Counted from the first letter of the stretch, positions 4,779 to 64,000 are shown. The stretch: 64,000 nt of DNA from Clostridia bacterium (GCA_045655245.1 JAZOOX010000014.1:5056-69055); one strand, 5' to 3'. A program made the numbers and translations. The notes: generated by a model not told the origin, from the letters alone.

Positions 4779-6282
4779 AGAGTCGCTAACCTCGGTTTTG
4801 CCGATTGCGATTATCGTTTTAATTTTGTCGGTCACCTGCGTATCCTTGGATGCAGGTGTTTTGGTGCTGTTTTTATTCGGAACCATCTTATTGATTTTAG
4901 GGATGAGCTTTTTTACGGTAGGGTCGACCATTTCGATGGAGCCGTTGGGTGATGGTATCGGTAAATCACTGAACAAAAACGGGAAGATCCTGGTTCCGCT
5001 GTTGATTTGTTTTGTTCTTGGCTTTTTAATCACTGTGTCCGAGCCTGATCTGCAGGTGTTGGCAGAGCAGGTGCCCACTATTCCAAACGCCCTTTTGATT
5101 GTCTGTGTGGGCGTGGGGGTCGGCATTTTCTTAAGCATCACCCTGGTCCGAAACAAAAAGGAGGTTTCGCTGCGAACACTGCTTTTGGTGTTTTATATTT
5201 TGATTATCGGGTTGGCGTTTTTTGCTCCCGCTGAGTTTGTTCCCACTGCCTTTGACTCGGGCGGGGTGACCACCGGCCCGATCACTGTCCCCTTTATTAT
5301 GGCGCTGGGTGCAGGTCTTGCATCGGGGATGAAGAGGAAGCACACGGGTGAGCATAGTTTCGGTCTGGTTGCTTTGTGCAGTATCGGACCGATTTTGTCG
5401 GTACTGCTTTTAAGCATTTTCTTTCAGCCACACCCCAGTACCTCGTTGTACGAGCATATTGAGGTGTTGACCACCACCGACGCCTTCCGTCAGTTTTTGA
5501 TTGCTTTGCCCCATTATGCAGAAGAAATGCTGACGGCATTTTTACCCATCGTCGGGCTGTTTGTTTTGTTCCAGTTGATTACCCGACGGTTTCACACCCA
5601 CAATGTATTAAGAATGACGGTCGGTTTTGTTTATACCTATATCGGTTTGGTTTTGTTTTTAACGGGTGCCAATGTTGGGTTTATGCCTGCAGGACGGCTG
5701 ATTGGCGGGTCAATCGCAGGGAGTTCTTTCAGCGCGATGTTGATTCCAATTGGTATGGTGATGGGTTATTTCGTAGTTTCTGCCGAGCCTGCGGTCCACT
5801 CTTTAAAACGCCAGGTCAGCGAAATTACCAAGGGTGCAATTTCGCAAAAATCGGTTGCAGTTGCCCTTTCGGTTGGTGTATCGGTATCGGTGGGGATTTC
5901 GATGCTTCGGGTACTGACGGGGATTTCTGTGATGCCTTTTTTACTGTTTGGCTACGCCGTGTCTCTGATCATCAGTTTCTTTGTTCCCCATATTTATACG
6001 GGTATCGCGTTTGACTCGGGCGGTGTTGCCAGCGGTCCCATGAGCTCGCCCTTTATGCTGCCCTTTGCTATGGGCGCTTGTGAAGCCGTCGGCGGAAACG
6101 TAATGACCGACGCTTTCGGCATTGTGGCGATGATTGCTATGACGCCGTTGATTACCATTCAGGTCTTAGGGTTGTACGAACGGAAAAAGCATTTGGAACG
6201 CATCAAAAAACTCCATACTCAAATCGGTATGGTCAAAGACGATATTATTTTCTTTGACGGAGAGGGGGATTGGGATGAATAA
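4753..6282 (+). CDS. DUF1538-family polytopic membrane protein (two internal repeats)
   Basis: 509 aa, about 12 predicted TM helices, internal duplication (..FDSGGVTTGPITVPF.. and ..FDSGGVASGPMSSPF..); RBS AGGAGACG before ATG 4753. Confidence 0.7.
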   Translation: MAHIFASIKESLTSVLPIAIIVLILSVTCVSLDAGVLVLFLFGTILLILGMSFFTVGSTISMEPLGDGIGKSLNKNGKILVPLLICFVLGFLITVSEPDLQVLAEQVPTIPNALLIVCVGVGVGIFLSITLVRNKKEVSLRTLLLVFYILIIGLAFFAPAEFVPTAFDSGGVTTGPITVPFIMALGAGLASGMKRKHTGEHSFGLVALCSIGPILSVLLLSIFFQPHPSTSLYEHIEVLTTTDAFRQFLIALPHYAEEMLTAFLPIVGLFVLFQLITRRFHTHNVLRMTVGFVYTYIGLVLFLTGANVGFMPAGRLIGGSIAGSSFSAMLIPIGMVMGYFVVSAEPAVHSLKRQVSEITKGAISQKSVAVALSVGVSVSVGISMLRVLTGISVMPFLLFGYAVSLIISFFVPHIYTGIAFDSGGVASGPMSSPFMLPFAMGACEAVGGNVMTDAFGIVAMIAMTPLITIQVLGLYERKKHLERIKKLHTQIGMVKDDIIFFDGEGDWDE

Positions 6283-6943
6283 ACGGTTAATGGTGCTGTT
6301 GTCCATTGTCGAACGGGACAAAGGGCAGAACCTGATTAAAGTTTTGGAAACCAGAAACATCCCCATGAACTTCCAATGTGTCGGGATTGGCACTGCCCCC
6401 ACCGAGATGCTGGATATCTTCGGTTTGGGTACCAAGGATAAGGACATTGTTATCAGTCTTGCTACCGAGGTGGCGGTGAAGGATATGATGTCCGATTTCG
6501 GGGCAGTTTTTGAAAGCCATAAGAAGTTCGGCGGGTTGATGATTATTTTGTCCACCACCGCCGCAAGCCGCGTGCTGACAGAGTTGTTAACCCACCACAC
6601 CAACACCCCAGGGGAGAAAGGAACAGGCGCTATGAAAAACGAACATCATAACAATCTGATTATTGTTTCGATGAATGAAGGATACGCCGATAGTGTTATG
6701 CAGGTTGCGCGAAAGGCAGGTGCAACGGGGGGCACCGTTATTAAAGGTCGTCTTGCCGATGTAGAGCTGGTTGCGGAATTGGAGAATACGGTGATTGACG
6801 AGGAAAGGGAGATTTTGTTCATCCTTGCGCCTTTAAAGACAAGCAAGCAGATTATGGAGGACATCAACCGGGAGTTTGGGATTAACTCCAAAGCCAACGG
6901 CATCATCACGGCGGTGCCTACCGAAAAAGCGTATAAAATTTGA
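6275..6943 (+). CDS. tandem P-II-like (GlnB-like) domain protein
   Basis: Two P-II-like halves; ATG 6275 preceded by RBS GAGGGGGATTGGG; classic partner of DUF1538 membrane proteins. Confidence 0.7.
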   Translation: MNKRLMVLLSIVERDKGQNLIKVLETRNIPMNFQCVGIGTAPTEMLDIFGLGTKDKDIVISLATEVAVKDMMSDFGAVFESHKKFGGLMIILSTTAASRVLTELLTHHTNTPGEKGTGAMKNEHHNNLIIVSMNEGYADSVMQVARKAGATGGTVIKGRLADVELVAELENTVIDEEREILFILAPLKTSKQIMEDINREFGINSKANGIITAVPTEKAYKI

Positions 6944-10353: not shown

Positions 10354-10879
10354 ATCGTCTCATGGGTGGGCGGTTGGACATTCCTGCCGCCATGCCTCCG
10401 GTGACGGTACGCGAAGCGGTGACCTCTTGGGGGAAGGTGTTGACGTTGAAATCGGGGCGTTGATTGGGTAGGTAGAAGTAGACAAACTTTACCGAGAATA
10501 CGTCGCAGACGATGAAGTTGTTGTTAAAGTCATCGTACAGGGTGATAAAACTGGTGCCTACATAAAAGAGGACGCCTTGTTTGCGGACGATTTCCTGAGT
10601 GCCGATTAAGAATTCCACCACCACGTATTCGCCAATGTTTTTCGAGAGGATGTACTGGATGGAACCGCGCATCTCCTCGGTATCAAAGTTGATGGGTGGC
10701 GGAGTGACGAAGCCGAAGACCCGATAGGTTCCGTCGGGGTTTTGGGTGACGTTCTGGCCCTGGTAGTTTTGAGGGTCTGTCATGGTCGGGGACCAGGTGC
10801 CGTCGCTGTTTGTTGAGTAGGATAGATTGTTGCTGCGGTTGGTGATTTCGTTCACGGTAGCCTCCTTAAGTATCGGCAT
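10352..10879 (-). CDS. gerQ: spore coat protein GerQ-like
   Basis: Q/N-rich N-terminus, C-terminal GerQ-like core (..IQYILSKNIGEYVVVEF..VLFYVGTSFITLYDDFNNNFIVCDVFSVKFVYF); overlaps and follows cwlJ as in Bacillus cwlJ-gerQ. Confidence 0.65.
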   Translation of the reverse strand: MPILKEATVNEITNRSNNLSYSTNSDGTWSPTMTDPQNYQGQNVTQNPDGTYRVFGFVTPPPINFDTEEMRGSIQYILSKNIGEYVVVEFLIGTQEIVRKQGVLFYVGTSFITLYDDFNNNFIVCDVFSVKFVYFYLPNQRPDFNVNTFPQEVTASRTVTGGMAAGMSNRPPMRR

Positions 10880-11303
10880 ATGCCGAAGTTGGATTGTAAA
10901 AACAATGCTTCCCGATGCGGATGACGAACTCTCCTACCTCGGACGGGAAGTTCTGGCGGCAGGAGGGGGCAAAGGGGTTGAAATACCACAGGGCGTAGCC
11001 CAGGTTGGTCAGTCGGTTCCCCGCGATGGCCCAGTCGGCGATGTTCAAGTGGACATCGGTGGGGCGCATATTATAGATGTTTTGCGGGTTGTATCGGCCG
11101 TTTAAGCTTTCCCGCACGCAATCGAACTGACCTTCCTGAAAGATGGTAGCGCGAATGGTGGGTTCTAACCGCCCGTATTCCCCGTAAGTGACGCGGACGC
11201 GGTTCATTACCACCGAGGCGACAGCTTTCATTCCGTCGTCCCCTTCGCCTCCAGCTTCGCACAGAATGATACGTGCTAACAGTTCCCGTTCGGACAATGC
11301 CAC
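10866..11303 (-). CDS. cwlJ: spore cortex-lytic cell-wall hydrolase CwlJ/SleB family
   Basis: Hydrolase_2 motif LARIILCEAGGEGDDGMKAVASVVMNRV; GTG start preceded by RBS AAGGAGGGGG; the TTG start of the listed ORF (11342) would bury that RBS. Confidence 0.8.
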   Translation of the reverse strand: MALSERELLARIILCEAGGEGDDGMKAVASVVMNRVRVTYGEYGRLEPTIRATIFQEGQFDCVRESLNGRYNPQNIYNMRPTDVHLNIADWAIAGNRLTNLGYALWYFNPFAPSCRQNFPSEVGEFVIRIGKHCFYNPTSAYADT

Positions 11304-35966: not shown

Positions 35967-35996
35967 AAAGGACTTGGATTTCTCCAAGTCCTTTTT
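35967..35996. repeat. hairpin repeat copy A (AAAGGACTTGG-N-CCAAGTCCTTTTT), inverted orientation
   Basis: 11-bp stem; four copies in the window (also 38011, 40846, 55563); copy A has its loop flipped relative to the others. Confidence 0.85.
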
Positions 35997-36002
35997 GTTA
36001 TA

Positions 36003-36040
36003 AAAAAGAAGACCAATAATGACCAAAAGGATTGTGGTAT
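36003..36040 (+). promoter_or_regulatory. conserved 38-bp box (AAAAAGAnGACCAATAATGACCAAAAGnAnTGTGGTA), copy 1, promoter-like
   Basis: Nearly identical to 55603-55637 upstream of the phage small terminase; contains -35/-10-like hexamers. Confidence 0.5.
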
Positions 36041-36106: not shown

Positions 36107-36763
36107 ATGAACGAAGAAAGAACCGCAGACGTTTTTCGCTCGTACTTGGTTGAAAATGCGGAATATGCAGGACAGGCAGAACTTCCGATCATCAAAACCA
36201 GCGATGAACTTCCGCAAAAACTTGTCCCGTTTTCCAAAGCGGTGACCAGAGGTCGCAAAGACTTCGACAGTTGGATTTGCTTTTATGAGCATGATGACCG
36301 ATTTGAACGGTTGTGGAAAGACCCCAAGCGCTACTTGCCGATTATCAAAAAATTTAAAGGGGTTATTTCACCCGACTTCAGTCTCTACCGCAATATGCCG
36401 ATTTGTATGCAATTGTGGAATACTTACCGTGGTAGAGCACTCGCCAATTGGCTTCAAAAAAACGGCGTAGAGGTTATCCCTAACGTCCGTTTTGGGGACG
36501 AACGCTCTTATTCTTTTTGCTTTGACGGGATTGAATCACAAAAAACGATTGCCGTTGGTACCCACGGATGCATTAAACACAAAACAGACCGCCTCTTTTT
36601 CCAAGTGGGCTTGGATGTTGCTGTCCGTAGACTGAACCCCAAAAACATAATCGTTTACGGACGGGCCCCTGACCGCGTATTTAAGCCCTACCGTGACCGA
36701 GGTATCCACGTTATCGCCTTCGAAAGCGAGTTCGCAGCATCTCGAAAGAAGGTGCGGGAATAA
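36107..36763 (+). CDS. hypothetical protein (phage-associated; possibly DUF4417-like, from memory)
   Basis: 218 aa; ..WICFYEHDDRFERLWKDPKRYLPIIKKFKGVISPDFSLYRNMP..; RBS AGGAGGAAATGA; preceded by the same box as the phage terminase gene. Confidence 0.5.
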   Translation: MNEERTADVFRSYLVENAEYAGQAELPIIKTSDELPQKLVPFSKAVTRGRKDFDSWICFYEHDDRFERLWKDPKRYLPIIKKFKGVISPDFSLYRNMPICMQLWNTYRGRALANWLQKNGVEVIPNVRFGDERSYSFCFDGIESQKTIAVGTHGCIKHKTDRLFFQVGLDVAVRRLNPKNIIVYGRAPDRVFKPYRDRGIHVIAFESEFAASRKKVRE

Positions 36764-37359
36764 TGGGTGGCGGAGCAGGCGGAAATTTTGGAAAAACCCA
36801 GGGGAGCGCATTGGATGCAATCAGTAACCTATTAGTAGCGGCATCTTTGATTCCGGGAGTGGATAGTGTTACCAACGTCATCTCGATTCCCGTTGACATC
36901 CTTCGGGGAGATTGGCTTTCGGTAGGACTGGATGTGCTGGGAGTCTTGCCCGTTGTCGGCGAAGCAGGAGATGCTATGAAACTGGCAAAACTTTCCGACA
37001 AGGCTTCGGATGCTACGAAGGTAGTAAAAAGAGCTACAAAAAGTGTGTCCGATAATGCGAGAAACGTTGCCAAACGATATTCTCTTAGTAAAAATGGTTA
37101 TTTCGGAACGAAAGGAAAAAACACACGAGTTTTCAAAAGCAGTGATCCTTTGAAAGAGTCTGCTGACTTTTATAAAAAGATCAGTAGGGGTGGCGTAGAA
37201 CGGGTTTTGCCTAATGGAAAAGGTGTTCAAACGGTTTTTCCTGATAATTCAAGCGTTGTTTATCGAGTGATTACCAAGACGCTTGATAGTCCTGCGGTTG
37301 AAATAATAGTAAAAACTGCAGGGCAAATAAAGTCACAAAAGATTCATTTTATAAAATAA
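36763..37359 (+). CDS. hypothetical Gly-rich N-terminus protein, possible truncated polymorphic-toxin C-terminal module
   Basis: ATGG overlap with the upstream stop; segment ..GLDVLGVLPVVGEAGDAMKL.. recalls a pre-toxin TG-type linker, then a basic about 90-aa C-terminal domain; no N-terminal secretion domain. Confidence 0.35.
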   Translation: MGGGAGGNFGKTQGSALDAISNLLVAASLIPGVDSVTNVISIPVDILRGDWLSVGLDVLGVLPVVGEAGDAMKLAKLSDKASDATKVVKRATKSVSDNARNVAKRYSLSKNGYFGTKGKNTRVFKSSDPLKESADFYKKISRGGVERVLPNGKGVQTVFPDNSSVVYRVITKTLDSPAVEIIVKTAGQIKSQKIHFIK

Positions 37360-37373
37360 GGAAGTGAGAACAA

Positions 37374-37916
37374 GTGATATTTGTTACTTTAAACGATCAA
37401 ATGGAAAAATTGCTCAGAAGCATTAAAGGAGCCGAAACGGTTTCGTATGAATGCGAGAAAACTTTTAATAATGTTTATGGCAAACTGAGAATCCATACCG
37501 AAAAAGGGTCTGTCGAAGTGACCAATTTTCATCAAACGAGAGACGTTTTAGGGGCTCAGGAAGATGTGTCCGGATTTCAATGCAAAAAGGTGAAAAAAGG
37601 GGATTGTTTTAAATCCTTGTGCGGGGACGTTGCTGAAACGTTTCGGATGAAGGGGCTTGTTACGGAAATCAAAATTATAAATGATGCCATTTCAGTGAAC
37701 GACGGAACATATGAAATCTCTTTCGATCAAGCGATTGTTATAAAAACAGAGGACGAAACAGTAATGTTTTCGCGCGATGCGTGGTTTTCGGAGGATATAA
37801 CAGTTTCCGAGCACGATGATTATGATTTGCTTGTTCCAGTGTCTCGGGTTGCTGAACTGTGGTCATTTGATGGGGATAATAAAGTAAAGATCACCAGAAC
37901 AAGCCGACAGTTATAG
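37374..37916 (+). CDS. hypothetical protein, candidate immunity partner
   Basis: GTG start after RBS AGGAAGTGAG; acidic 180-aa cytoplasmic protein immediately downstream of the toxin-like ORF. Confidence 0.3.
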   Translation: MIFVTLNDQMEKLLRSIKGAETVSYECEKTFNNVYGKLRIHTEKGSVEVTNFHQTRDVLGAQEDVSGFQCKKVKKGDCFKSLCGDVAETFRMKGLVTEIKIINDAISVNDGTYEISFDQAIVIKTEDETVMFSRDAWFSEDITVSEHDDYDLLVPVSRVAELWSFDGDNKVKITRTSRQL

Positions 37917-38010: not shown

Positions 38011-38038
38011 AAAAGGACTTGGAGAAATCCAAGTCCTT
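38011..38038. repeat. hairpin repeat copy C
   Basis: AAAAGGACTTGGAGAAATCCAAGTCCTT; inverted relative to copy A, so the 36.0-38.0 kb cassette is bracketed by inverted copies. Confidence 0.85.
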
Positions 38039-38123
38039 CTTTGTTTTGGTTTAAAAATCATGGCGATCATCTACCGAGAGTCTGTTCTCGGAAAACAAGC
38101 GAAGCAACTCCTTATTGCAATAT

Positions 38124-38138
38124 GGGGATTATATCCCC
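38124..38138. promoter_or_regulatory. perfect palindrome GGGGAT-TAT-ATCCCC upstream of the XRE gene (candidate operator)
   Basis: 6-bp arms, 3-bp spacer, about 65 bp upstream of the XRE RBS. Confidence 0.45.
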
Positions 38139-38228
38139 TTAATAATTGAGATTATAACCCCCCATAATAGTACTTGCCAAGATGAAGGGGGAAATAGAAC
38201 GATTCGGTTTGACAAGTTGTGGGAGACA

Positions 38229-38399
38229 ATGGAGCAAAAGGGTGTCAGTACCTATCAGTTGAGGGAAAAGTGTGGCATCGACAGCAAGACCATTCGGCGG
38301 TTAAAAGCCAACGAGAATGTTGAGACAAAGACTTTGGACAAGCTTTGCGCCGCACTGGACTGTGTGCTGAGCGACATTGCTGAATATATTGCAGAATAA
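38229..38399 (+). CDS. XRE-family helix-turn-helix transcriptional regulator (start uncertain)
   Basis: HTH_3-like ..GVSTYQLREKCGIDSKTIRRLKANENV..; strong RBS GAAGGGGGAAA at 38184-38194 points to initiation near 38202 (in-frame ATT) rather than ATG 38229. Confidence 0.6.
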   Translation: MEQKGVSTYQLREKCGIDSKTIRRLKANENVETKTLDKLCAALDCVLSDIAEYIAE

Positions 38400-55548: not shown

Positions 55549-55562
55549 GAAAGTAGTTCCGA

Positions 55563-55592
55563 AAAGGACTTGGAGAAATCCAAGTCCTTTTT
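55563..55592. repeat. hairpin repeat copy B
   Basis: AAAAGGACTTGGAGAAATCCAAGTCCTTTTTT at the host/phage-module junction. Confidence 0.85.
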
Positions 55593-55602
55593 TATTTTTC
55601 CA

Positions 55603-55637
55603 AAAAGATGACCAATAATGACCAAAAGAAGTGTGGT
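55603..55637 (+). promoter_or_regulatory. conserved box, copy 2 (promoter-like; -10 TATAAT at 55632-55637)
   Basis: GATGACCAATAATGACCAAAAGAAGTGTGGTAGTATAAT; near-identical to 36003-36040. Confidence 0.5.
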
Positions 55638-55664
55638 AGTATAATTTCGAAAGGAGGAATACGG

Positions 55665-55847
55665 ATGGCAAAACGAAAACAGGCAAGTAGTGCCGTTGCC
55701 TTTTGGGAGCGATTGTTAAACGACCCGGAGGCAGATATCAAGGACCGCTTAAAGGCGTCGGAGTTCCTGGCAAAAGCCCACAAGACTTTTGCCGAAGAGC
55801 CGCTGACCGACCGTGAGCTGAACGTGACGATCCGTGTGGTTGAATAA
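55665..55847 (+). CDS. phage terminase small-subunit-like protein
   Basis: 60 aa; RBS AAGGAGG before ATG 55665; TAATG overlap with the large-terminase start; position and size fit a small terminase, sequence alone is weak. Confidence 0.4.
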   Translation: MAKRKQASSAVAFWERLLNDPEADIKDRLKASEFLAKAHKTFAEEPLTDRELNVTIRVVE

Positions 55848-57214
55848 TGGATTTAAACCTTACCGTCACCCAAAAGCAAAAGTCCTTTCTGGATGCCACT
55901 GCTGACGAAGTGTTATACGGCGGGGCGGCAGGGGGCGGGAAGAGTTACGGACAGGTAGTGGATGCCTTGGTTTATGCCCTGCGCTACAAGGGCATCCGTC
56001 AGCTGGTGCTTCGCCGCACCTTTCCCGAACTGAAGCGGAGTTTGATTTTAACCTCTCTTGCCCTTTTTCCAAAAGGAGTCTGTCAGTACCAAAGCGCAAA
56101 CCATCGGTTTGTCTTTCAAAACGGCTCGGTCATCGAGTTTGGTTATTGTGACACGGAAGGGGATGTGACCCAGTACCAATCGGCGGAGTACGATGTTTTA
56201 CGATTTGACGAGCTGACCCACTTCACCGAGTTTCAGTACCGTTACTTAATCTCCCGTATTCGTGGCGTCAACGGCCATCCCAAACAGGTCAAGGCCACTA
56301 CCAATCCGGGGGGCATCGGGCACAGTTGGGTGAAAGAACGGTTTATCGGTCACGACGGGGAGTGGACGGCAGAGGATGGACGCACGCGAGTATTTATCCC
56401 TGCCACCGTGCGGGACAACTGTTTTTTAATGTCGTCAGACAGTGGCTACCTCGCCCGTCTGGAACAGTTGCCCGAGCAGGAAAAACGTGCCTTGCTTTAC
56501 GGGGACTGGGACTTGTACGAGGGACAAGCCTTTGGGGAGTTTCGCAACAACCCCGACGGGTATCTCTCCCGCCGCGGCAGTCACGTCATCACCCCTTTCG
56601 AGATTCCGGAACACTGGCGGCGATTCCGCAGTTTTGACTTCGGCTATGCCAAGCCTTTTGCGGTTCAATGGTGGGCGGTAGATGAGGACGGACGTGCTTA
56701 TCTTTACCGACAACTGTACGGGTCCACGGGGAAACCCAACGAGGGGAGGCGGTGGACGGTCAGTCAAATCGGTCAGGCCATTGCCCGTATCGAAGCGGAA
56801 GAAGAACGGGGACGAAATATCACGGGGATTGCCGATCCCAGTATCTGGGACACCTCCCGTGGGGAGTCGGTTGCCGAGATGCTGGAGCGGGAGGGGGTTT
56901 ACTTCGACCCCGGGGACAACGCCCGTCTGGCAGGGAAGATGCAGCTGCACTACCGACTTCAGTTTGATGAAGGGGGCTTGCCGATGCTTTATGTCTTTTC
57001 TACCTGTCGGGACTTTATCCGCACATTGCCCGGGCTGATTTATGACCGACACCGCTCCGAGGACATCGACACCAACGGCGAAGACCACGACTATGATGCC
57101 TGCCGCTACTTTTTAATGGCAAATCCCATTGGAGCAAAACGTCCACAGCCCCGCGGGCATTTCGAGACCGACCCCCTCGACCGAAAAGTATGGGTCATTG
57201 ATTTACCAAAGTAA
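55847..57214 (+). CDS. phage terminase large subunit (PBSX/XtmB-like)
   Basis: Walker A ..YGGAAGGGKSY.., about 450-aa compact terminase with C-terminal nuclease region. Confidence 0.9.
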   Translation: MDLNLTVTQKQKSFLDATADEVLYGGAAGGGKSYGQVVDALVYALRYKGIRQLVLRRTFPELKRSLILTSLALFPKGVCQYQSANHRFVFQNGSVIEFGYCDTEGDVTQYQSAEYDVLRFDELTHFTEFQYRYLISRIRGVNGHPKQVKATTNPGGIGHSWVKERFIGHDGEWTAEDGRTRVFIPATVRDNCFLMSSDSGYLARLEQLPEQEKRALLYGDWDLYEGQAFGEFRNNPDGYLSRRGSHVITPFEIPEHWRRFRSFDFGYAKPFAVQWWAVDEDGRAYLYRQLYGSTGKPNEGRRWTVSQIGQAIARIEAEEERGRNITGIADPSIWDTSRGESVAEMLEREGVYFDPGDNARLAGKMQLHYRLQFDEGGLPMLYVFSTCRDFIRTLPGLIYDRHRSEDIDTNGEDHDYDACRYFLMANPIGAKRPQPRGHFETDPLDRKVWVIDLPK

Positions 57215-57233
57215 TGAAGATAGGAGAAGAAAA

Positions 57234-58757
57234 ATGGAAGAATTTTTCAGAGAAGTGCAACGGGCGTTTAATACTTACGTTGCCGAAAAAGCCGCCATTG
57301 ACAGTGAACTGGTAGATGGTGAGGAATGGTTTAATGATCGTTGTTTTGACGGCGGTCGGGAAGCGGATGGGAGTGTTCGCGGTGCAGGCGGATATGTGTA
57401 TAACATTGTTGCCAACAAGCATGCCGATGCCATGGACCAGATGCCCGCGCCCCTCTTTTTGCCCCGTGAGCAAGAGGACACGATTGCGGCTGAGGAAGCC
57501 TCGCAGGTGTTACCGGTAGTACTGGCACGATGCGGGTTTGAACGCACTTATTCCGACGGCTGGTGGAACAAGCTAAAGCATGGCACTGCCGCCTATGGAG
57601 TTTTTTGGGACAATGCTAAATCGGATATCTGCATTCGTGAGGTGGACCTGCTTAACATCTTTTGGGAACCTGCAGTAGAGGACATCCAGGACAGCCGATT
57701 TTTGTTTATCACTCGTGTGCTGAGCCGTCAGCAGATGGGGGAACTGTACCCCCAACTGTCGCCTGCCGACTATGCCGCTCCCATCAACCTGCGGAGCTAC
57801 GAGCATCGCTTTGACCCCGAACGGGTTTTGGTGGTGGATTGCTACTACAAAGACCGCGGAGTACATCTTTTAAAGTTCTGCGGGGACAAAATCCTGTACC
57901 ACTCTAAAGAGGACAAGCGGTTAAATCGCCGCGGCCTCTATCATCACGGACAGTATCCCATCGTCTTTGACCGCCTGATTGCCAAGCGGGGGACACCTCA
58001 GGGTGCAGGGTTTATCTCTCTTTCCCGCGGGGCGCAGGAGTACATTGATCGCCTGGACAGTTTGCTGCTTCAGAACGCCTTGGTGTCGGGACGGCAACGC
58101 TGGTTTATCAAAGACAACGGCGGCGTGAACGAACAGGAGTTTTTAAACTTTGAAAATGATTTGATTCATGTTGCGGGAAGTCTGGAAGAAACGCACATCC
58201 GTCCCTTCCAGGCAACGGCACTGCCCTCCTATGTGCAGTATTTGCGGGAACACAAGATTTCCGAATTGAAGGAGATTTGCGGCAACCGCGACTTCCAGCA
58301 GGGCGCTACCGCCCAGGGGGTTACTGCTTATTCTGCCATTGCCGCCTTACAGGAAGCGGGGAACAAGCTCAGTCGGGATATGATTGCCGAGAGCTATGAT
58401 GCGTTCCGACAGATCATGCGGCTCTGCCTTTCTTTGGTGGTCCAGTTTTATGACGAGGCGCGGGTTTTCCGTGTAACGGGGGACCAATTCCTAAGCTTTT
58501 CTGCCAAGTCACTGGTACGGGACGGAAAGGAAGTGGAACTGGACATTGAAGTACAGGCACAGAAGCAGAACCCCGTTACCCGCGAAGGACAAAACCAATT
58601 GCTGATGGAACTCTATCGGCTGGGGGTATTCCGCCCCGAGAATGCAACGGCCGCTAAAGTACTGGTCTCCCAGATGGACTTTAACGGGCGTGAGGGTCTG
58701 CTTTCGGCGCTGATTCGTGCCGAGCAGGGCTACCGCAACGAGGAGGCACAGGCATGA
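57234..58757 (+). CDS. phage portal protein
   Basis: About 507 aa directly after the terminase; RBS AGGAGAAG before ATG 57234; size and position fit a portal. Confidence 0.75.
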   Translation: MEEFFREVQRAFNTYVAEKAAIDSELVDGEEWFNDRCFDGGREADGSVRGAGGYVYNIVANKHADAMDQMPAPLFLPREQEDTIAAEEASQVLPVVLARCGFERTYSDGWWNKLKHGTAAYGVFWDNAKSDICIREVDLLNIFWEPAVEDIQDSRFLFITRVLSRQQMGELYPQLSPADYAAPINLRSYEHRFDPERVLVVDCYYKDRGVHLLKFCGDKILYHSKEDKRLNRRGLYHHGQYPIVFDRLIAKRGTPQGAGFISLSRGAQEYIDRLDSLLLQNALVSGRQRWFIKDNGGVNEQEFLNFENDLIHVAGSLEETHIRPFQATALPSYVQYLREHKISELKEICGNRDFQQGATAQGVTAYSAIAALQEAGNKLSRDMIAESYDAFRQIMRLCLSLVVQFYDEARVFRVTGDQFLSFSAKSLVRDGKEVELDIEVQAQKQNPVTREGQNQLLMELYRLGVFRPENATAAKVLVSQMDFNGREGLLSALIRAEQGYRNEEAQA

Positions 58758-59335
58758 GTGAACTTTCTTTGGGCGCAAGAACTGCGGAACCCGCCCACCC
58801 GCAAGACGGTGCAAATACCGAAAGTCCGTCCGCCGTCCGGACCCCGATTCTGGCGTTTTATTCCCAGGACGAAGTCGACCGTTTTATGGGAAAACGTTTG
58901 GGAGAGAGTCGGAAAATCAAAGAGGCGTACGAGCAACTTCAGCCGATGCTGGTACACCTGCGCAAAGAGTATGGCTGTGATAACGACCGGGATTTGGTCG
59001 GGCAGGTGTTAGGTCAGGCGGAAGCAGGCGGCTTACGCTATGGAATCGGCGCCACCACCCCTGCCGACTGGGCGGCGTTGTTACAGGAGCACCCCGATAT
59101 TGACCCTGTTGAGGTCACCGACGACCCGAAAGTCCGTCGGGCAATGCGAGCGGGGTTTAGCCTGTCCGAAGCTGTACGGATTGCCAAACTGTTAAACGAC
59201 GGCGCTGCCCGCCCTGACGAAAACGGGGCGGCACGGCATCGCAGCAGGATTCGGCTGGATATTGAGCGGATGACCGACGCCCAGTTAAACGAAGTGGCAC
59301 GTCGGGTCAGACGCGGAGAACTTGTTCAATTTTAG
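58754..59335 (+). CDS. hypothetical phage protein (scaffold/head-morphogenesis position)
   Basis: ATGA overlap with the portal stop; lies between portal and capsid. Confidence 0.35.
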   Translation: MSELSLGARTAEPAHPQDGANTESPSAVRTPILAFYSQDEVDRFMGKRLGESRKIKEAYEQLQPMLVHLRKEYGCDNDRDLVGQVLGQAEAGGLRYGIGATTPADWAALLQEHPDIDPVEVTDDPKVRRAMRAGFSLSEAVRIAKLLNDGAARPDENGAARHRSRIRLDIERMTDAQLNEVARRVRRGELVQF

Positions 59336-59348
59336 GAGGAATTAAGTT

Positions 59349-60506
59349 ATGAGTAATGTAAACGAAAACATTCAAAGCACCGCCACCTTAAGTGCGGAAA
59401 ACAAAACCTATTACGACAAACGATTGATTCAGTTTGCCAAGCCCAATCTGGTCCACGACCAGTTCGGTCAAAAGCGACCTATCCCTAAAAATGGCGGCAA
59501 AACCATTGAGTTCCGCAGTTTCTCGTCCCTGCCCAAGGCGTTGGTACCCCTGACCGAGGGCGTTACCCCCGATGGCGAAAGTCTGACCGTGGAGCAGATT
59601 TCTGCATCGGTCAACCAGTACGGCTCGTACGTTACCACCACCGATATGCTGAATATGACCGCCATTGACAACATTGTGGTTGAGACTTCCGAGGTCTTAG
59701 GTGACCAGGCGGGAAGAACCTTGGATACTGTTGTTCGCGAATACTTAAACGCCGGTTCTTCGGTTCAGTATGCCGACGGCGAAAAGGATTCCCGTTCCCA
59801 GCTGACTGCCGCTGATACCCTGTCGGTGAAGGCGGTCCAGCGTGCCGTTGCAACCTTAAAAAAGAACAATGCCAAACCTTTTGCCGACGGGTCTTTTGTT
59901 GCCATTGTCCATCCCGCCGTTGCTCATGACCTGATGCGCGACCCCGAATGGAAGGACGTTGCCAATTACAACCCTGCGGAATGGTATGCGGGTGAAATTG
60001 GCCGCATCGCAGGTGTTCGCTTTGTTGAAACCACCGAAGCCAAAATTTTCGAAGCGGAGGATCTGGCAGGATTTGATGACTTGACGATTACGGCAGTAGA
60101 TGCCCAAAATCGCAAGGTTACCATCGCTGAAGAAGTGGATGCATCGGTCATCGGCCGTGAAATCGTCATTAACGGTCTGGACTACACGATCGCAGCTGTT
60201 GACGGTTTTACCCTGACCTTGTCCGAGGTCCTGCCCGCATCGGTTGCCGCTAACGATAAGGTTTACCCCGCCGGCGGCACCTCGGACGGCAGTCCTGTTT
60301 ATTCTACTTTGATTTTGGGTCGTGATGCTTATGGTGTTACCGAGATTACCGGCGGCGGTCTGGAAATGATTGTAAAGCCTTTGGGCTCCGGCGGTACGGG
60401 CGACCCCTTAAACCAACGTTCCACCATGGGCTGGAAAGCAACCAAGGTGGCTAAAATTCTGACCGAAGAGTATATGATTCGCGTGGAGACTACTGCAGCA
60501 TTATAA
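59349..60506 (+). CDS. phage major capsid protein
   Basis: 385 aa, RBS AGGAGG; capsid-like composition and position after the scaffold. Confidence 0.65.
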   Translation: MSNVNENIQSTATLSAENKTYYDKRLIQFAKPNLVHDQFGQKRPIPKNGGKTIEFRSFSSLPKALVPLTEGVTPDGESLTVEQISASVNQYGSYVTTTDMLNMTAIDNIVVETSEVLGDQAGRTLDTVVREYLNAGSSVQYADGEKDSRSQLTAADTLSVKAVQRAVATLKKNNAKPFADGSFVAIVHPAVAHDLMRDPEWKDVANYNPAEWYAGEIGRIAGVRFVETTEAKIFEAEDLAGFDDLTITAVDAQNRKVTIAEEVDASVIGREIVINGLDYTIAAVDGFTLTLSEVLPASVAANDKVYPAGGTSDGSPVYSTLILGRDAYGVTEITGGGLEMIVKPLGSGGTGDPLNQRSTMGWKATKVAKILTEEYMIRVETTAAL

Positions 60507-60554
60507 GAAAGTGGGGGCGGGATACCGCCCCCTGGCACAAAAGGAGGAATTACA

Positions 60555-60884
60555 ATGGCAGAAAAGAAAATTACTGTCAGTTTGACCGCCGAGGAACTGA
60601 TGGCGTTAAAGCAACTGGTCCATAACCCTGAAACTCGCGCGGTTTCGCCCGTTAAGGAACCGGCTGATGCGGTTCGTGCTTACTATGACGAGCCGGTGGA
60701 GATCTATCTGCATCCTTACGGCACCCGCGAATACCTGACCGTAGTGGTCAACGGCGTGACCTATCAGGTGCGCCGCGGGGTCAGTGTCACTGTTCCCCGT
60801 CGTGTAGCACGGGTTATTCGTCAGGCAGAGGAAAATTATCGTCGTGCGCTGGTCTTTGATCGCCGCATGATCGCGCAAGGGTAG
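60555..60884 (+). CDS. hypothetical phage protein (109 aa)
   Basis: RBS AAAGGAGG; head-completion position. Confidence 0.4.
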   Translation: MAEKKITVSLTAEELMALKQLVHNPETRAVSPVKEPADAVRAYYDEPVEIYLHPYGTREYLTVVVNGVTYQVRRGVSVTVPRRVARVIRQAEENYRRALVFDRRMIAQG

Positions 60885-60893
60885 GTGATAAAA

Positions 60894-61934
60894 ATGCAAA
60901 ATTTTTGGTGGAATCGCAAGTTCTATCATGGAAGACCCGAGCCGGACAGTTACAGACTGTCTCGCTTGGAAGAAACCAGCTCGACAACCGCCGAAACCCT
61001 GTCTGCTCTGTCAAAGGCGCAGACTGCGACAGACGCTTTAAACGATGCCCAGGGCAAACTTCTGGGGGAACACACTGCCCTGCTATCCCATCTGACTGAC
61101 ATCGCCGCCTCCACGCAAGAGGATGTGGAGCAGGTTGTGGCAGAATGTGACAGCATCAGTAACGAACTTACTGCCCTGGAGCAGAACGACAATGTGCTGT
61201 CTGCTCGTATCGATGGCATCGAAGAAGCCTGCGCTGATACTTCGGCAGAGCAAGCCACACGGTTGAACCAACTGGAGTCTGCTACTGCTGAATTCCCGAA
61301 AAAACTTACTGTACTGGAAAACAAACTCACGTCTACAAGAGGTGAGGGGATGGGGTACCTCCCCTTTCAAGGTTACGGTTGCACCTGCAATCTATTGGGT
61401 TCGTATCCCGCCGGAGGAGTTACGTTGTTCAGCGAATCATACGATGCAGCCAACCTATATCTGTCACCAATAAATGAGACACAGCTGATAATCCCCCCAG
61501 GGAGTGGGGTCCTTTTCGGATCGATGGATGGTATCAAATTTTCTGATGGAGAATTTGAAGTGATTAACCTTTCCCAGATGCCGATGCTGAAGAAAATAGG
61601 TTTTTGTGACTTTGTGTTTCACGGTCTTGTCATGCCCTCAAAACCTATCTTGTACGAGGTGGTGTTAGAGAGAACTAACGGCGTTACAGTAGATTTACAA
61701 AATCAAACCCAGCTGTTCAACCTGACCATGGTAAATTGTCATGCAAATGTGCGCTTACCCGATACTCTTCCGAACCTGGAATATGTGGTATTGGATAGTA
61801 ATAAAGCGCAGGATGAAGATTTTTTGAAAAAATATCTCTTCGACCGTAGTCAAACTAGCCCCGGACGGGTGTCACTGTCGGGCGCAACGCCTCCCGACTG
61901 GCTGGCAGAACGGAACTGGACGGTGATAGGGTGA
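60894..61934 (+). CDS. hypothetical phage protein: N-terminal coiled coil + C-terminal Leu-rich repeat-like region
   Basis: Heptad-rich N-terminal half (..ALSKAQTATDALNDAQGKLLGEHTALLSHL..), C-terminal LRR-like segment; ATG 60894 after RBS AGGGTAGGTG. Confidence 0.45.
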   Translation: MQNFWWNRKFYHGRPEPDSYRLSRLEETSSTTAETLSALSKAQTATDALNDAQGKLLGEHTALLSHLTDIAASTQEDVEQVVAECDSISNELTALEQNDNVLSARIDGIEEACADTSAEQATRLNQLESATAEFPKKLTVLENKLTSTRGEGMGYLPFQGYGCTCNLLGSYPAGGVTLFSESYDAANLYLSPINETQLIIPPGSGVLFGSMDGIKFSDGEFEVINLSQMPMLKKIGFCDFVFHGLVMPSKPILYEVVLERTNGVTVDLQNQTQLFNLTMVNCHANVRLPDTLPNLEYVVLDSNKAQDEDFLKKYLFDRSQTSPGRVSLSGATPPDWLAERNWTVIG

Positions 61935-62662
61935 ACGTTTTTGCTTTAAAGATTATCCATGATGCCGATGCCCGCATTCCTAACGCCCTCCCTACGGCAA
62001 AGAAACTGGACTGGCTCAACCGCCTGGAAGCCCGTATTCGTTTGGAAATCAAGCGCATCTATGACGAGTACACCCTTACGGTTACCGAGGATAAACCCTA
62101 CCTGCTCCCCGTGTCGGAAGAGCAAATAGAATGGGTGTTTTATAACGGCAACCCCATCCCGAAAATCGACCTTCGTTCTGCCGAAGGGTTGCGGGCGGGG
62201 GAGTACCGATTCGTTTGCCGTAGCCTGCCCGAGCCTCTGACCGATCGAGTGGTGACCGATGAAAACGCCACTTTTTCGGCGGACAGCATCACCTTCTCCG
62301 AGTACCATCCTTTTGTGAAAGGCGATTTTATTGGCATTTCGGAAACGCCAGACAACAATGTTACCGCCACGGTAACCGAAATTGATGGTGTGACCGTCAA
62401 AACGGATTACACCGCCTTTGTTGCAGGGGAAATGCCCGCTACCGTATGCAGTATCAACGACCGTCCCATGGAGATCCCCACTCAGCACCCTTGCTTTGGG
62501 ATATACGAGGAGTATCTGTGTATGGAACTCGCCCGTCACCTGGCGGATACCGAGCGTTTCCGTCTGGCAGAGAGCGCCTTTGCTGCCTTATGGGAGGAGT
62601 ACGCCCGACTCTACCGCCAGACTGCCCCCCAAACCCCCGGGGCAAAAGTAAGGGGGATCTGA
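61931..62662 (+). CDS. hypothetical phage protein (243 aa)
   Basis: GTG start overlapping the upstream stop (GTGA). Confidence 0.4.
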   Translation: MNVFALKIIHDADARIPNALPTAKKLDWLNRLEARIRLEIKRIYDEYTLTVTEDKPYLLPVSEEQIEWVFYNGNPIPKIDLRSAEGLRAGEYRFVCRSLPEPLTDRVVTDENATFSADSITFSEYHPFVKGDFIGISETPDNNVTATVTEIDGVTVKTDYTAFVAGEMPATVCSINDRPMEIPTQHPCFGIYEEYLCMELARHLADTERFRLAESAFAALWEEYARLYRQTAPQTPGAKVRGI

Positions 62663-64000
62663 TATGGCAGAAACCTTACTGGACATCAAAACCTTCGGCG
62701 GGCTGAACTTTAGTCCCAATGCCGAAGCGGGGGAGTGTGCCATTGCCCTCAACCTGGACGATGCCAATGCCCCCGCCTTGCGTACCGCATACGGATTTAC
62801 CGATGAGACGGTAACCGAAACGGGTACTTTTCAGGGTCATCTCATCGAACAGGGCAAAACGGTGATGTCGGTCTTTGACGATACGTTGTATATGGGTCAA
62901 ATGCAATTTCCGTTAGAGCCTTTGGGTGTGCCTCGCAGATTTCTGCGTATCACGCCCAAGGACGTTTTAATCTTCCCCGATTGCTACCGCTACTCCTATT
63001 CCCACGTCGAGTGCGCCCCCTTGGACGAACGCTTTACCTCCGAAGGGACGGCTACTCACGATGACGGCAAAGTGCGGGTGAAATTGACCACCCGCCCGCT
63101 CAGCTCCATCCGTGGTCGGGTCTACCTGGATGATGCGGGGTATACCTATTACGACCCCGAAACCGCCCCGGGTGAATCTCTTTTGTACTTCGAGGTGGAG
63201 AGTTACGACCACGACGGAAGCGGTTGTGCGTTAGTGTTAAAACCTGTCACCAACGGAACCGGCATGTATTCTTATTCGTCGGATAAAGTCAAAGACCGAC
63301 TCACCCTCCGTCAGGTCTATCCCCGCATGGACCATGTAATGATCTTCCGCAACCGGCTCTGGTGCGTGGGCGGAATGGTCCTTACCGCATCAAAACTGGG
63401 TGACTACTTAAACTTCACCGATTTTTCGGGTCTTTCCACCGATAGCTTTTCGATGGAAGTGGAAGAACCCCTAAACGCAATCTCCCACTTTGGAGAACGG
63501 GTGGTCTTTATGAGCAAAACCCACCTCTACGAACTCTACGGCGACCGTCCTTCCAACTATCAGGTCTCAGCTCCGAAATCGGGCGGTTGTACCTACCCCG
63601 ACTCTGTATGTACTGCAGGGGGTTACCTCATCTATGCCGACGATCGCAACCTCTATCGTTATGGTGGCGGGGACCCCCAGGTTACCACCGAACGGCTGGA
63701 TTTCCCCCAATGGACTTCGGTGTTCGGCGTTTCGGACGGCGAATCCTGTTATCTTGGCATCGACGGCCACCTCTATCGCTACCGTCCCAAACGCAATACC
63801 TTTTATGCCCTCGACCGCACCGCCACCCTGGGCATCACCCAACAAAGCACCTGTTTCTTCTATAATAATAAGGGATACTTCTGTCCCAACCGCGAACGGA
63901 CGGGTGAGGTGCACTTCCGTTCGGGTTGGCTCTGCCTGGACAAGCGGGGTCGCGTCGCACCGAAAGAGATTCTGCTCCGTATTGACGGTGCGGTAGACGA
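62663..64000 (+). CDS. hypothetical phage structural protein (partial, 3' end outside window)
   Basis: Open frame from ATG 62663 (MAETLLDIKTFGGLNFSPN..) to the window end (over 445 codons) with no stop; absent from the ORF track, presumably because it is incomplete. Confidence 0.5.

Follow-up and report, generated by a model that had tools for sequence, protein, structure and literature searches.

The last part of a 64,000-nucleotide stretch of Clostridia bacterium DNA (GCA_045655245.1, JAZOOX010000014.1:5056-69055; the whole stretch is called the window here) carries a series of phage-type packaging and structural genes at 55,563-64,000, directly following host genes. We propose that this series belongs to a domesticated, non-autonomous particle locus of podovirus type, a viriform resembling a gene transfer agent (GTA) of the kind described as FpGTA in Faecalibacterium prausnitzii, and from the sequence evidence we place the probability of this reading at about 60%. 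The operon looks like a derivative of a Page/P22-like short-tailed phage, without the genes of an independent life cycle, that is apparently inherited vertically in a small clade of uncultured gut Clostridia. As such, it would add to a recently established kind and not found a new one. Orthologous loci show that the cluster extends over ~11.2 kb and 13 genes, and the window probably holds its first (left) 8.4 kb and not the edge of a prophage.

To our knowledge, GTAs were essentially an alphaproteobacterial phenomenon until 2026. Podovirus-like GTAs are now known to be active in the human gut through FpGTA, and GTA-type packaging has also been seen in other Ruminococcaceae, Oscillospiraceae, and Christensenellaceae, with the encoding loci not located (Borodovich et al., Nat Commun 2026, PMC12946183). 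The cluster described here is a concrete candidate locus, self-contained in one operon, in another uncultured Clostridia lineage. The original prediction had offered a defective PBSX-like element, a gene transfer agent or tailocin-type locus, a prophage stripped of its other modules, and a prophage with an unusual map as possibilities. Of these, the GTA or domesticated option is favored because mobility genes are absent, the site is conserved, divergence and codon usage are like those of the host, and selection is purifying. Taken with a probably truncated small terminase subunit (TerS) and the loss of the Prp protease, the constant site, the host-like divergence, and the selection are signs of domestication that occur together.

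Site and gene order

We compared the window with loci from metagenomes, metagenome-assembled genomes (MAGs), and GenBank, designated L001 to L028; identities are amino acid identities unless stated. In the window, the 14 kb 5' of the cluster hold the dcw cell-wall cluster, YpsA, BipA/TypA, and a GH35 galactosidase, confirming that host genes directly precede the module, as had been read from GH35. Locus L003, a 35-kb sequence from ENA, runs through BipA, GH35, a small open reading frame (ORF), the large terminase subunit (TerL), portal, scaffold, major capsid protein (MCP), p109, p361, p243, p500, p54, p489, a holin (Phage_holin_4_1), and an amidase (Amidase_2). Parts of this arrangement are repeated in L001/L002, L005, L007, L018, and L019/L020, and in L003, L018, and L019 the holin and amidase genes form one uninterrupted series with the structural genes.

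On the right, the L003 amidase gene is followed by a terminator hairpin, a 380-nt AT-rich spacer, and genes for two giant proteins (1235 and 1598 aa) that have typical signal peptides and match no phage family. Host secreted-protein genes also form the right end after the amidase in L001, L018, and L019/L020. The neighbors are the same wherever a flank is visible: the window, L003, and L007/L027 have GH35 to the left, and L003, L001, L018, and L019 have a giant protein to the right. The orthologous clusters argue against an unusually arranged prophage, as they end ~11.2 kb in, after the holin and amidase, and then give way to host genes.

No integrase, excisionase, repressor, or primase/replicase gene was found within 10 to 14 kb on either side (left flank of the window; L003, L018, and L019). 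The structural, packaging, and lysis genes are chromosomal and stand without replication, integration, or lysogeny genes in the left flank of the window and in both flanks of L003, L018, and L019, as GTA genes do; the integrase, att sites, repressor, and replication module of a temperate prophage are not present at the cluster loci. No tRNA was found at the locus, and the longest exact repeat common to both ends of L003 is 10 nt, the maximum in shuffled controls being 13. The downstream inspection that had been proposed at the outset, carried out in the orthologous loci, yields tail and lysis genes but neither integrase nor att repeats.

Divergence and selection

Synonymous divergence (dS) between the window and L003 is about the same in the cluster as in the flanking host genes (Table 1), and the ratio of nonsynonymous to synonymous divergence (dN/dS) lies at 0.03-0.4 for every cluster gene in every lineage pair. 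There are no pseudogenes: five lineages show every one of the 13 genes intact, and with dN/dS well below 1 this argues against the decayed prophage that had been considered. Host and cluster genes give an identical three-lineage topology, ((window, L003), L007/L027). Between the window and L007/L027, TerL (85% identical) and MCP (82%) match the degree of conservation of the host core proteins MurG (79%), FtsW (72%), and MraY (68%). GC content at third codon positions and codon usage are host-like (cluster versus host, r = 0.91; host half versus half, r = 0.94). The cluster is under purifying selection and apparently inherited vertically, with caveats from saturation and mosaicism that are taken up below.

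Table 1. Divergence of host and cluster genes between the window and L003
Gene	dS	dN/dS
BipA (host)	0.91	0.027
GH35 (host)	0.95	0.043
TerL	0.93	0.041
Portal	1.06	0.057
MCP	0.92	0.056
p243	1.1	0.12
Nozzle p502	1.0	0.24

Cluster proteins and their predicted roles

From 55.6 kb onward, an uninterrupted series of overlapping or closely packed ORFs runs along the + strand until the window stops (Table 2). Searches of the window proteins against Pfam, NCBIfam (TIGR), and PHROG profiles back the order of terminase, portal, scaffold, capsid, and structural ORFs that had been called from the sequence. A megablast search of the region against phage genomes gave no match, and an Rfam scan of the window, L018, and L019 returned no family.

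Table 2. Features of the cluster, its left border, and related sites (window coordinates unless a locus is named; AF2, AlphaFold2)
Feature	Position	Strand	Evidence or remark
Terminator-type hairpin AAAGGACTTGGAgaaaTCCAAGTCCTTTTTT, left border	55561..55592	+	
Conserved non-coding control region	55593..55664	+	
60-aa small ORF, probable TerS remnant	55665..55847	+	position and weak Page TerS match
TerL, ATPase and nuclease	55847..57214	+	Terminase_3 2e-13; Terminase_6N 1e-9; phrog_979 6e-52
Portal, P22/SU10 type	57234..58757	+	P22_portal 1e-25; SU10_portal 3e-11; phrog_156 8e-70
Scaffold-position protein, 193 aa	58754..59335	+	C-terminus matches phrog_13908
MCP, N4-gp56 family, HK97 fold	59349..60506	+	TIGR04387 285 bits (cutoff 60); phrog_1357 4e-83
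GC-rich hairpin GGGGGCGGgataCCGCCCCC without U-tract, MCP/p109 gap	60513..60532	+	
p109, conserved small virion-module protein	60555..60884	+	phrog_15239 7e-8
Coiled-coil protein p349	60885/60894..61934	+	AF2 helix; weak SMC-type coiled-coil matches
p243, directly 5' of nozzle gene	61931..62662	+	phrog_12105
Tail nozzle (by structural model), 502 aa in full	62664..64000	+	phrog_511; window stops at residue 445
Second hairpin and GACCAA copy	35967..36036	+	5' of low-GC DUF4417 island
DUF4417 protein	36107-36763		Pfam 9e-66
198-aa protein, Gly-rich N-terminus, toxin-like	36763-37359		no family match
180-aa protein, immunity-like	37374-37916		
Third hairpin copy	38012-38039		followed by HTH_26 gene
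HTH_26 Cro/C1-type gene	38115-38399		followed by terminator
SLH insertion	L007 884-2023; L027 14326-15465		GH35 there keeps its own separate terminator

The stop codon of the 60-aa ORF overlaps the TerL start (ATAATG). Its product has no family match in Pfam, PHROG, or NCBIfam, and BLASTP against the TerS-position proteins of L011, L012, and L006 gave nothing significant. Residues 22-44 resemble residues 148-170, in the C-terminal helix, of the Terminase_2 TerS of phage Page (pairwise E = 4e-4), a match to which hhalign assigns E = 0.006 and a probability of only 6%. The protein at the TerS position in L011-L013 and L015 is 164-232 aa long, with weak helix-turn-helix (HTH) matches that fall below threshold in L011 and L012, the two scanned. 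Among lineages, the 60-aa ORF has a dN/dS of 0.03-0.2. The likely identity of this protein is a TerS remnant that lacks a DNA-binding domain; its earlier description as terminase small-like draws on its position and on the weak match to the Page helix. TerL has the Walker A motif YGGAAGGGKSY, is 94% identical to its counterpart in L003 and 84-85% to those in L005/L007, and shows a dN/dS of 0.04-0.11. Calling it PBSX-type was loosely right, in that the broad Terminase_3 family applies but the match to the PBSX equivalog TIGR01547 reaches 49.9 bits, short of its cutoff of 105. The portal gene has a dN/dS of 0.06-0.09. Sequence searches of the nozzle, portal, and MCP against PDB found nothing.

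The 193-aa protein at the scaffold position has no Pfam or NCBIfam match and none to Peptidase_Prp even at E = 1. The phage relatives L011 and L012 have two proteins at this position, a scaffold of ~300 aa and, on its portal side, a Prp cysteine protease. The original prediction was correct that a prohead protease is missing between portal and capsid, and by gene content the absence is a derived loss relative to the Prp-bearing phage relatives. Between the window and L003, dS falls to 0.38 in the scaffold gene (58754-59335 vs L003 6056-6637), with neighbors at 0.9-1.1, and is also low in p109, at 0.61; recent recombination between lineages or overlapping constraint could account for both.

The nearest cultured relatives of the MCP are found in the Page group of Bacillus megaterium podophages, with 39% identity to the Page MCP. 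Alignments place a variable insertion of ~70 aa at about residues 236-303, relative to the phage relatives. The same insertion is present in the host-flanked clusters L021, L024, and L028 (MCP of 375-412 aa), absent from L011 and L012 (334-336 aa) and from Page (320 aa), and skipped by the MCPs of L008-L010 and L013-L017, which align in two pieces. It may be tied to capsid size or stability. Homologues of p109 also lie 3' of the MCP gene in relatives, being syntenic in L011, L012, L021, and L024.

The tail region begins with p349, which has a conserved N-terminus (MQNFWWNRKFYHG, starting at 60894), a rod of variable length, and a fast-diverging C-terminal domain. It is 55-58% identical to p361 of L003, whereas neighboring genes are at ~90%. 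A single-sequence AF2 model gives a helix over residues 21-149 at a pLDDT of 52, too poor for a fold search. This protein is a candidate fiber or receptor-binding protein. The coiled coil reported for it earlier is supported by the AF2 helix and weak SMC-type matches, but the leucine-rich-repeat-like part found no family match. The p243 gene is syntenic in all lineages and in L024, and from its position its product is a candidate head-to-tail adaptor. The final ORF, first seen as a protein of over 445 aa, is 100% identical to a 502-aa database protein (P0001) from a 71,858-bp NCBI contig, the source contig, which contains the full 502-aa nozzle gene and a p54 orthologue. Its AF2 model has a pLDDT of 88, and the top Foldseek matches in PDB are Pa223 (2.6e-14), P22 gp10 (8eap_D; 3.6e-12), T7 gp12, and Sf6; by this model the protein is a podovirus tail nozzle. 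Along with the fiber-like p349, the nozzle is the fastest-evolving product of the cluster. No sheath, tube, or baseplate (contractile-tail) family was matched by the cluster proteins, which, with the P22-type portal and nozzle, points to a podovirus-type particle; the PBSX-like option is wrong as to the kind of particle.

From these genes we infer particle production, non-specific packaging, a capsid size, and DNA delivery to recipients. A host-controlled promoter/operator, the GACCAA-repeat block described below, would switch the operon on in a subpopulation of cells. The scaffold and the N4-type capsid protein would form a procapsid on the P22-type portal with no dedicated protease encoded, and TerL with the 60-aa TerS remnant, lacking a DNA-binding domain, would fill heads with available DNA instead of a pac-defined genome. 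A short tail would be made of the putative adaptor p243, the p502 nozzle, the p349 coiled-coil fiber, and p489, and the holin and amidase would lyse the producer and release the particles.

Control region and its second copy

The left-border hairpin, which the original prediction had placed correctly, travels with the cluster in other lineages; in L007 it lies 3' of an inserted SLH gene and not of GH35. Near-identical copies occur in the window at 35967-35994 and 38012-38039. Some 75 nt separate the hairpin from the small ORF, and they are near-invariant in the window, L003, L005, and L007, in the same comparisons in which 50-70% of synonymous coding sites differ; the rare substitutions show no coding pattern. 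This region contains a tandem GACCAA at 10 bp spacing (55610-15, 55620-25), TGnTAnnnT (55634-42, a possible extended -10), TATAAT (55640-45), and the ribosome-binding site (RBS) AGGAGG (55652-57). A start 17 nt after the hairpin, at 55608, had been implied for the small ORF, but 55665, giving 60 aa, is likelier because of the RBS and because 55593-55664 behaves as non-coding.

The GACCAA motif has a second copy at 36008-36036 (0 expected by chance), upstream of a low-GC island (36107-37916) with a GC content of 40-47% and a codon usage that correlates with that of the host at r = 0.59. An upstream block with tandem GACCAA is common to the cluster and the 36-kb operon, and we infer that the hairpin and GACCAA block may serve as a shared promoter/operator.

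Neighboring genes at the two ends

In L007/L027, a gene for an SLH-domain secreted protein (379 aa, of lower GC) sits between GH35 and the border hairpin. The giant right-hand proteins (L003 14505-21503; L018 6717-11291) are made of repeated modules of ~380 aa, are 32-38% identical between lineages, and have no Pfam or PHROG match; contigs tend to break inside their genes. In the gap between the amidase terminator and the giant gene (L003 14165-14345, L018 ~6335-6560, L019 ~10685-10880) lies a conserved near-consensus promoter, TTGACA-17 nt-TATAAT. It is followed by an element of ~130 nt with a lineage-variable 5' hairpin, an invariant core of ~40 nt (CCAATTTCTTCATTCTCAT...CTCGTTTCTCCAAACG) inside a GC stem, and a U-run. 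The element has no Rfam match and resembles a small RNA or leader. In L018, the interval between amidase and giant gene (5017-6151) also encodes a 182-aa barnase-type RNase with a remnant of a MuF head domain and a barstar protein, a predicted polymorphic-toxin/immunity pair attached to the particle cluster.

Phage relatives and other compact clusters

TerL and MCP were each searched in a database of 5.8 billion proteins, with the 120 best matches listed per search. The cluster's own clade stands at identities of at least 79% for TerL and at least 82% for MCP, the next relatives at ~65% and 57%, and none lies between among the matches listed, of which none was assignable to Faecalibacterium. 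A contig profile search with the MCP alignment identified a single MAG of the cluster's clade (L007), along with ten relatives at 47-58% MCP identity; one with the nozzle fragment gave no match. The loci at ~55% MCP identity come from MAGs of Lachnospiraceae, Acutalibacteraceae, Avispirillum, and Oscillospiraceae. Small + strand ORFs lie 5' of TerL in L011 and L012, including genes for SSB and a VRR-NUC nuclease in L012, and by gene content these relatives look like ordinary prophages.

A further module, in L006 (5848-11350; GCA_017546205.1, JAFYXJ010000006.1), is host-flanked; besides a portal gene, it has genes for a LexA/S24-type repressor, for a DUF722 protein, and for a TerL that shares 64% identity with that of the window. 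The LexA-like repressor lies between portal and TerL, and capsid and tail genes are absent. We considered this module (P0175/L006) as a counterpart of the cluster and rejected it as a scrambled remnant of a related phage.

L021-L026 (for example, L021 9378-15347 and L024 9201-15751) are host-flanked six-gene clusters with 52-57% MCP identity. Their genes encode a scaffold-like protein (195-200 aa), an MCP (409-412 aa), and p109-like (81-86 aa), p243-like (261-278 aa), nozzle-like (555-559 aa), and p489-like (421-430 aa) proteins, and no TerL or portal gene was found within 10 kb on either side. MCP homologues of this type occur in 55-83 contigs of abundant gut bacteria. In these clusters, an element of the same kind may be divided among several loci.

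L028 is MT835662.1 (22,568 bp, from human feces), deposited as "UNVERIFIED: Bacteriophage sp." It contains an 11.3-kb cluster of TerL, portal, scaffold, MCP, nozzle, p489-like, and holin genes on the minus strand (22452 -> 11172), and the next genes are bacterial (CAP-domain, M23/LysM peptidase, SpoIIM, PduL, C1 peptidase, and ZIP transporter). MT835662.1 is a chromosomal fragment and not a phage genome, because ordinary bacterial genes adjoin the cluster, and some GenBank "Bacteriophage sp." records are, like it, chromosomal clusters of this sort. In gut Clostridia, compact clusters from this phage lineage seem to be widely distributed. A 60-aa TerS remnant beside TerL, an N4-type MCP with the insertion, and host genes on both sides within ~11 kb can serve as markers in a search for more such loci.

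Weighing the alternatives

Several points weigh against a domesticated, GTA-like locus. The cluster is known from its genes, and particles, their cargo, and its transfer are predictions; the right half of the cluster is read in the source genome as far as p54, with the remainder deduced from orthologues, and other parts of the genome may hold further loci needed to form or regulate particles. The likeness to FpGTA is drawn from its published description and a shared NCBIfam family of the MCP, and the TerS label of the 60-aa protein from its place in the gene order and a weak match. Equal dS is a soft argument, because synonymous sites are close to saturated (proportion of differing sites, 0.5-0.7). 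On the L007 branch, cluster dN is ~2.5-3 times the host-based expectation from the window and L003, and the MCP is mosaic, with L005 and L007 sharing 85% where their TerL proteins share 95%; because of this excess and mosaicism, recombination or a change of rate must have occurred. In L003, the ATG of the small ORF reads AGG (L003 2970-2980, equivalent to window 55665-55667), and the sole ATGs in frame are located inside the conserved block or 5' of it, although the ORF retains a dN/dS of 0.03 against the window. An assembly error, another start, or a transcript starting further upstream could explain this.

The best placed of the competing explanations, though we regard it as unlikely, is a killing or delivery particle, that is, a PBSX-like "headed bacteriocin" or toxin carrier that would be released by lysis, harm relatives without immunity, and contain DNA incidentally. 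Anatomy cannot separate a GTA from PBSX-type function, a caveat that the FpGTA authors also raise (PMC12946183). The fast evolution of p349 and the nozzle is expected of strain-specific targeting, the barnase-type toxin of L018, with its MuF remnant and barstar partner, lies directly 3' of the amidase gene, and the upstream motif of the cluster recurs before the DUF4417/toxin-like/immunity-like island at 36 kb. However, the 198-aa "toxin" of that island has no family match, and no toxin gene lies inside the cluster in the window, L003, or L019. Known tailocins, moreover, lack the head, terminase, and portal, which are kept here with dN/dS of 0.04-0.1.

We give still less credence to a regulon in which the hairpin and tandem-GACCAA operator would govern both the cluster and the 36-kb island. 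The particles would then be toxin/DNA weapons ("headed tailocins") or a GTA coupled to kin discrimination, separate from the FpGTA lineage and with the single operon perhaps ancestral. The island may share its regulation with the cluster, or the hairpin may be a repeated intergenic element.

Two further explanations rank lower and level with each other, and both appear improbable. A helper-dependent satellite (capsid-forming island), or a mobilizable late-gene cassette landing at the same site, would fit the small size of ~11 kb and the cluster's own terminase, portal, and capsid, as in capsid-forming phage-inducible chromosomal islands (cf-PICIs). The mosaic MCP, the divergence exceeding that of the host on one branch, and the left-border hairpin repeats that also bracket another island are consistent with such mobility as well. 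The genes for movement and replication are nevertheless missing from the 10 to 14 kb on either side, as are att repeats and a tRNA; tail and lysis genes are part of the cluster itself, and its codon usage and topology agree with those of the host. Nor is a non-functional prophage remnant, its early region deleted and the rest kept by chance or by selection on the lysis genes, easy to reconcile with 13 ORFs intact in five lineages despite near-saturated synonymous divergence, with dN/dS of 0.03-0.4 for every gene, and with a conserved upstream control region, even though the early, lysogeny, and replication modules are missing and scrambled remnants of related phages such as L006 do exist. Least probable is a complete temperate prophage with an unusual map and its remaining modules beyond the window: the window does stop inside the nozzle gene, the right side of the source is seen through orthologues, and Page-type genomes do start with the terminase, but host genes follow the amidase in L003, L001, L018, and L019/L020, the source contig is only 71.9 kb, TerS is cut to 60 aa, and there are no close phage relatives among the matches listed.

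Comparison with known systems

The domesticated, GTA-like reading can be set against five known systems. Phage Page of Bacillus megaterium and P22-like podoviruses resemble the cluster in their structural module. The Page genome starts with TerS, TerL, portal, scaffold, and MCP, and the 39% MCP identity, the P22-type portal and nozzle, and protease-free assembly are further likenesses. Page, however, is autonomous, and its 40-kb genome includes genes for replication, recombination, and regulation, for a sigma factor, and for a Terminase_2 TerS of 200 aa; the cluster has none of these, and its probable TerS remnant is 60 aa long.

PBSX of Bacillus subtilis is likewise a Gram-positive defective phage-like element released by lysis, and its TerL also belongs to Terminase_3. 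It differs in its size of ~28 kb, its myovirus-like contractile tail, its Xre/Xpf regulators, and its killing particle; the cluster TerL stays below the PBSX cutoff (49.9 bits vs 105 for TIGR01547), and the cluster has no sheath, tube, or baseplate genes. The tails of cf-PICI satellites are supplied by a helper phage, whereas the cluster has nozzle, fiber-like, and lysis genes of its own, and integrase, regulatory, and primase/replication genes are absent from it and its flanks.

GTAs of the RcGTA type resemble the cluster in being head-tail clusters of ~11-15 kb without replication or integration genes that are vertically inherited under purifying selection. RcGTA also has a truncated TerS, which is thought to relax packaging specificity. 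In contrast to the podovirus-like cluster, with its P22-type portal and nozzle and N4-type capsid, RcGTA resembles siphoviruses: it combines a long tail with a protease/capsid module of HK97 type, has its lysis genes elsewhere in the genome, and comes from an unrelated host phylum.

FpGTA (proteins RCH50844-50853) is split in two. Operon I, of 10.5 kb, has genes for a small TerS that lacks a DNA-binding domain, TerL, portal, a protein annotated as Prp at the scaffold position, an N4-gp56 MCP, and hypothetical proteins, one of which is a nozzle matched to PDB 8EAP; operon II, of 5.5 kb and ~125 kb away, encodes fibers, a receptor-binding protein, a holin, and an endolysin. The particles measure 40 nm and contain 8.4-8.9 kb of random host DNA (PMC12946183). 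The cluster differs in being a single operon of ~11.2 kb that includes lysis, in having no Prp-annotated gene between portal and MCP, and in its fiber gene set. It shares with FpGTA the character of a chromosomal, non-autonomous podovirus-type cluster in gut Clostridia, known here from its genes; the order TerS, TerL, portal, scaffold position, N4-gp56 MCP, and nozzle, with a weak TerS assignment here; a nozzle 3' of the MCP that matches the same entry, 8EAP; and a holin with a lytic enzyme for release, an amidase in the cluster and an endolysin in FpGTA.

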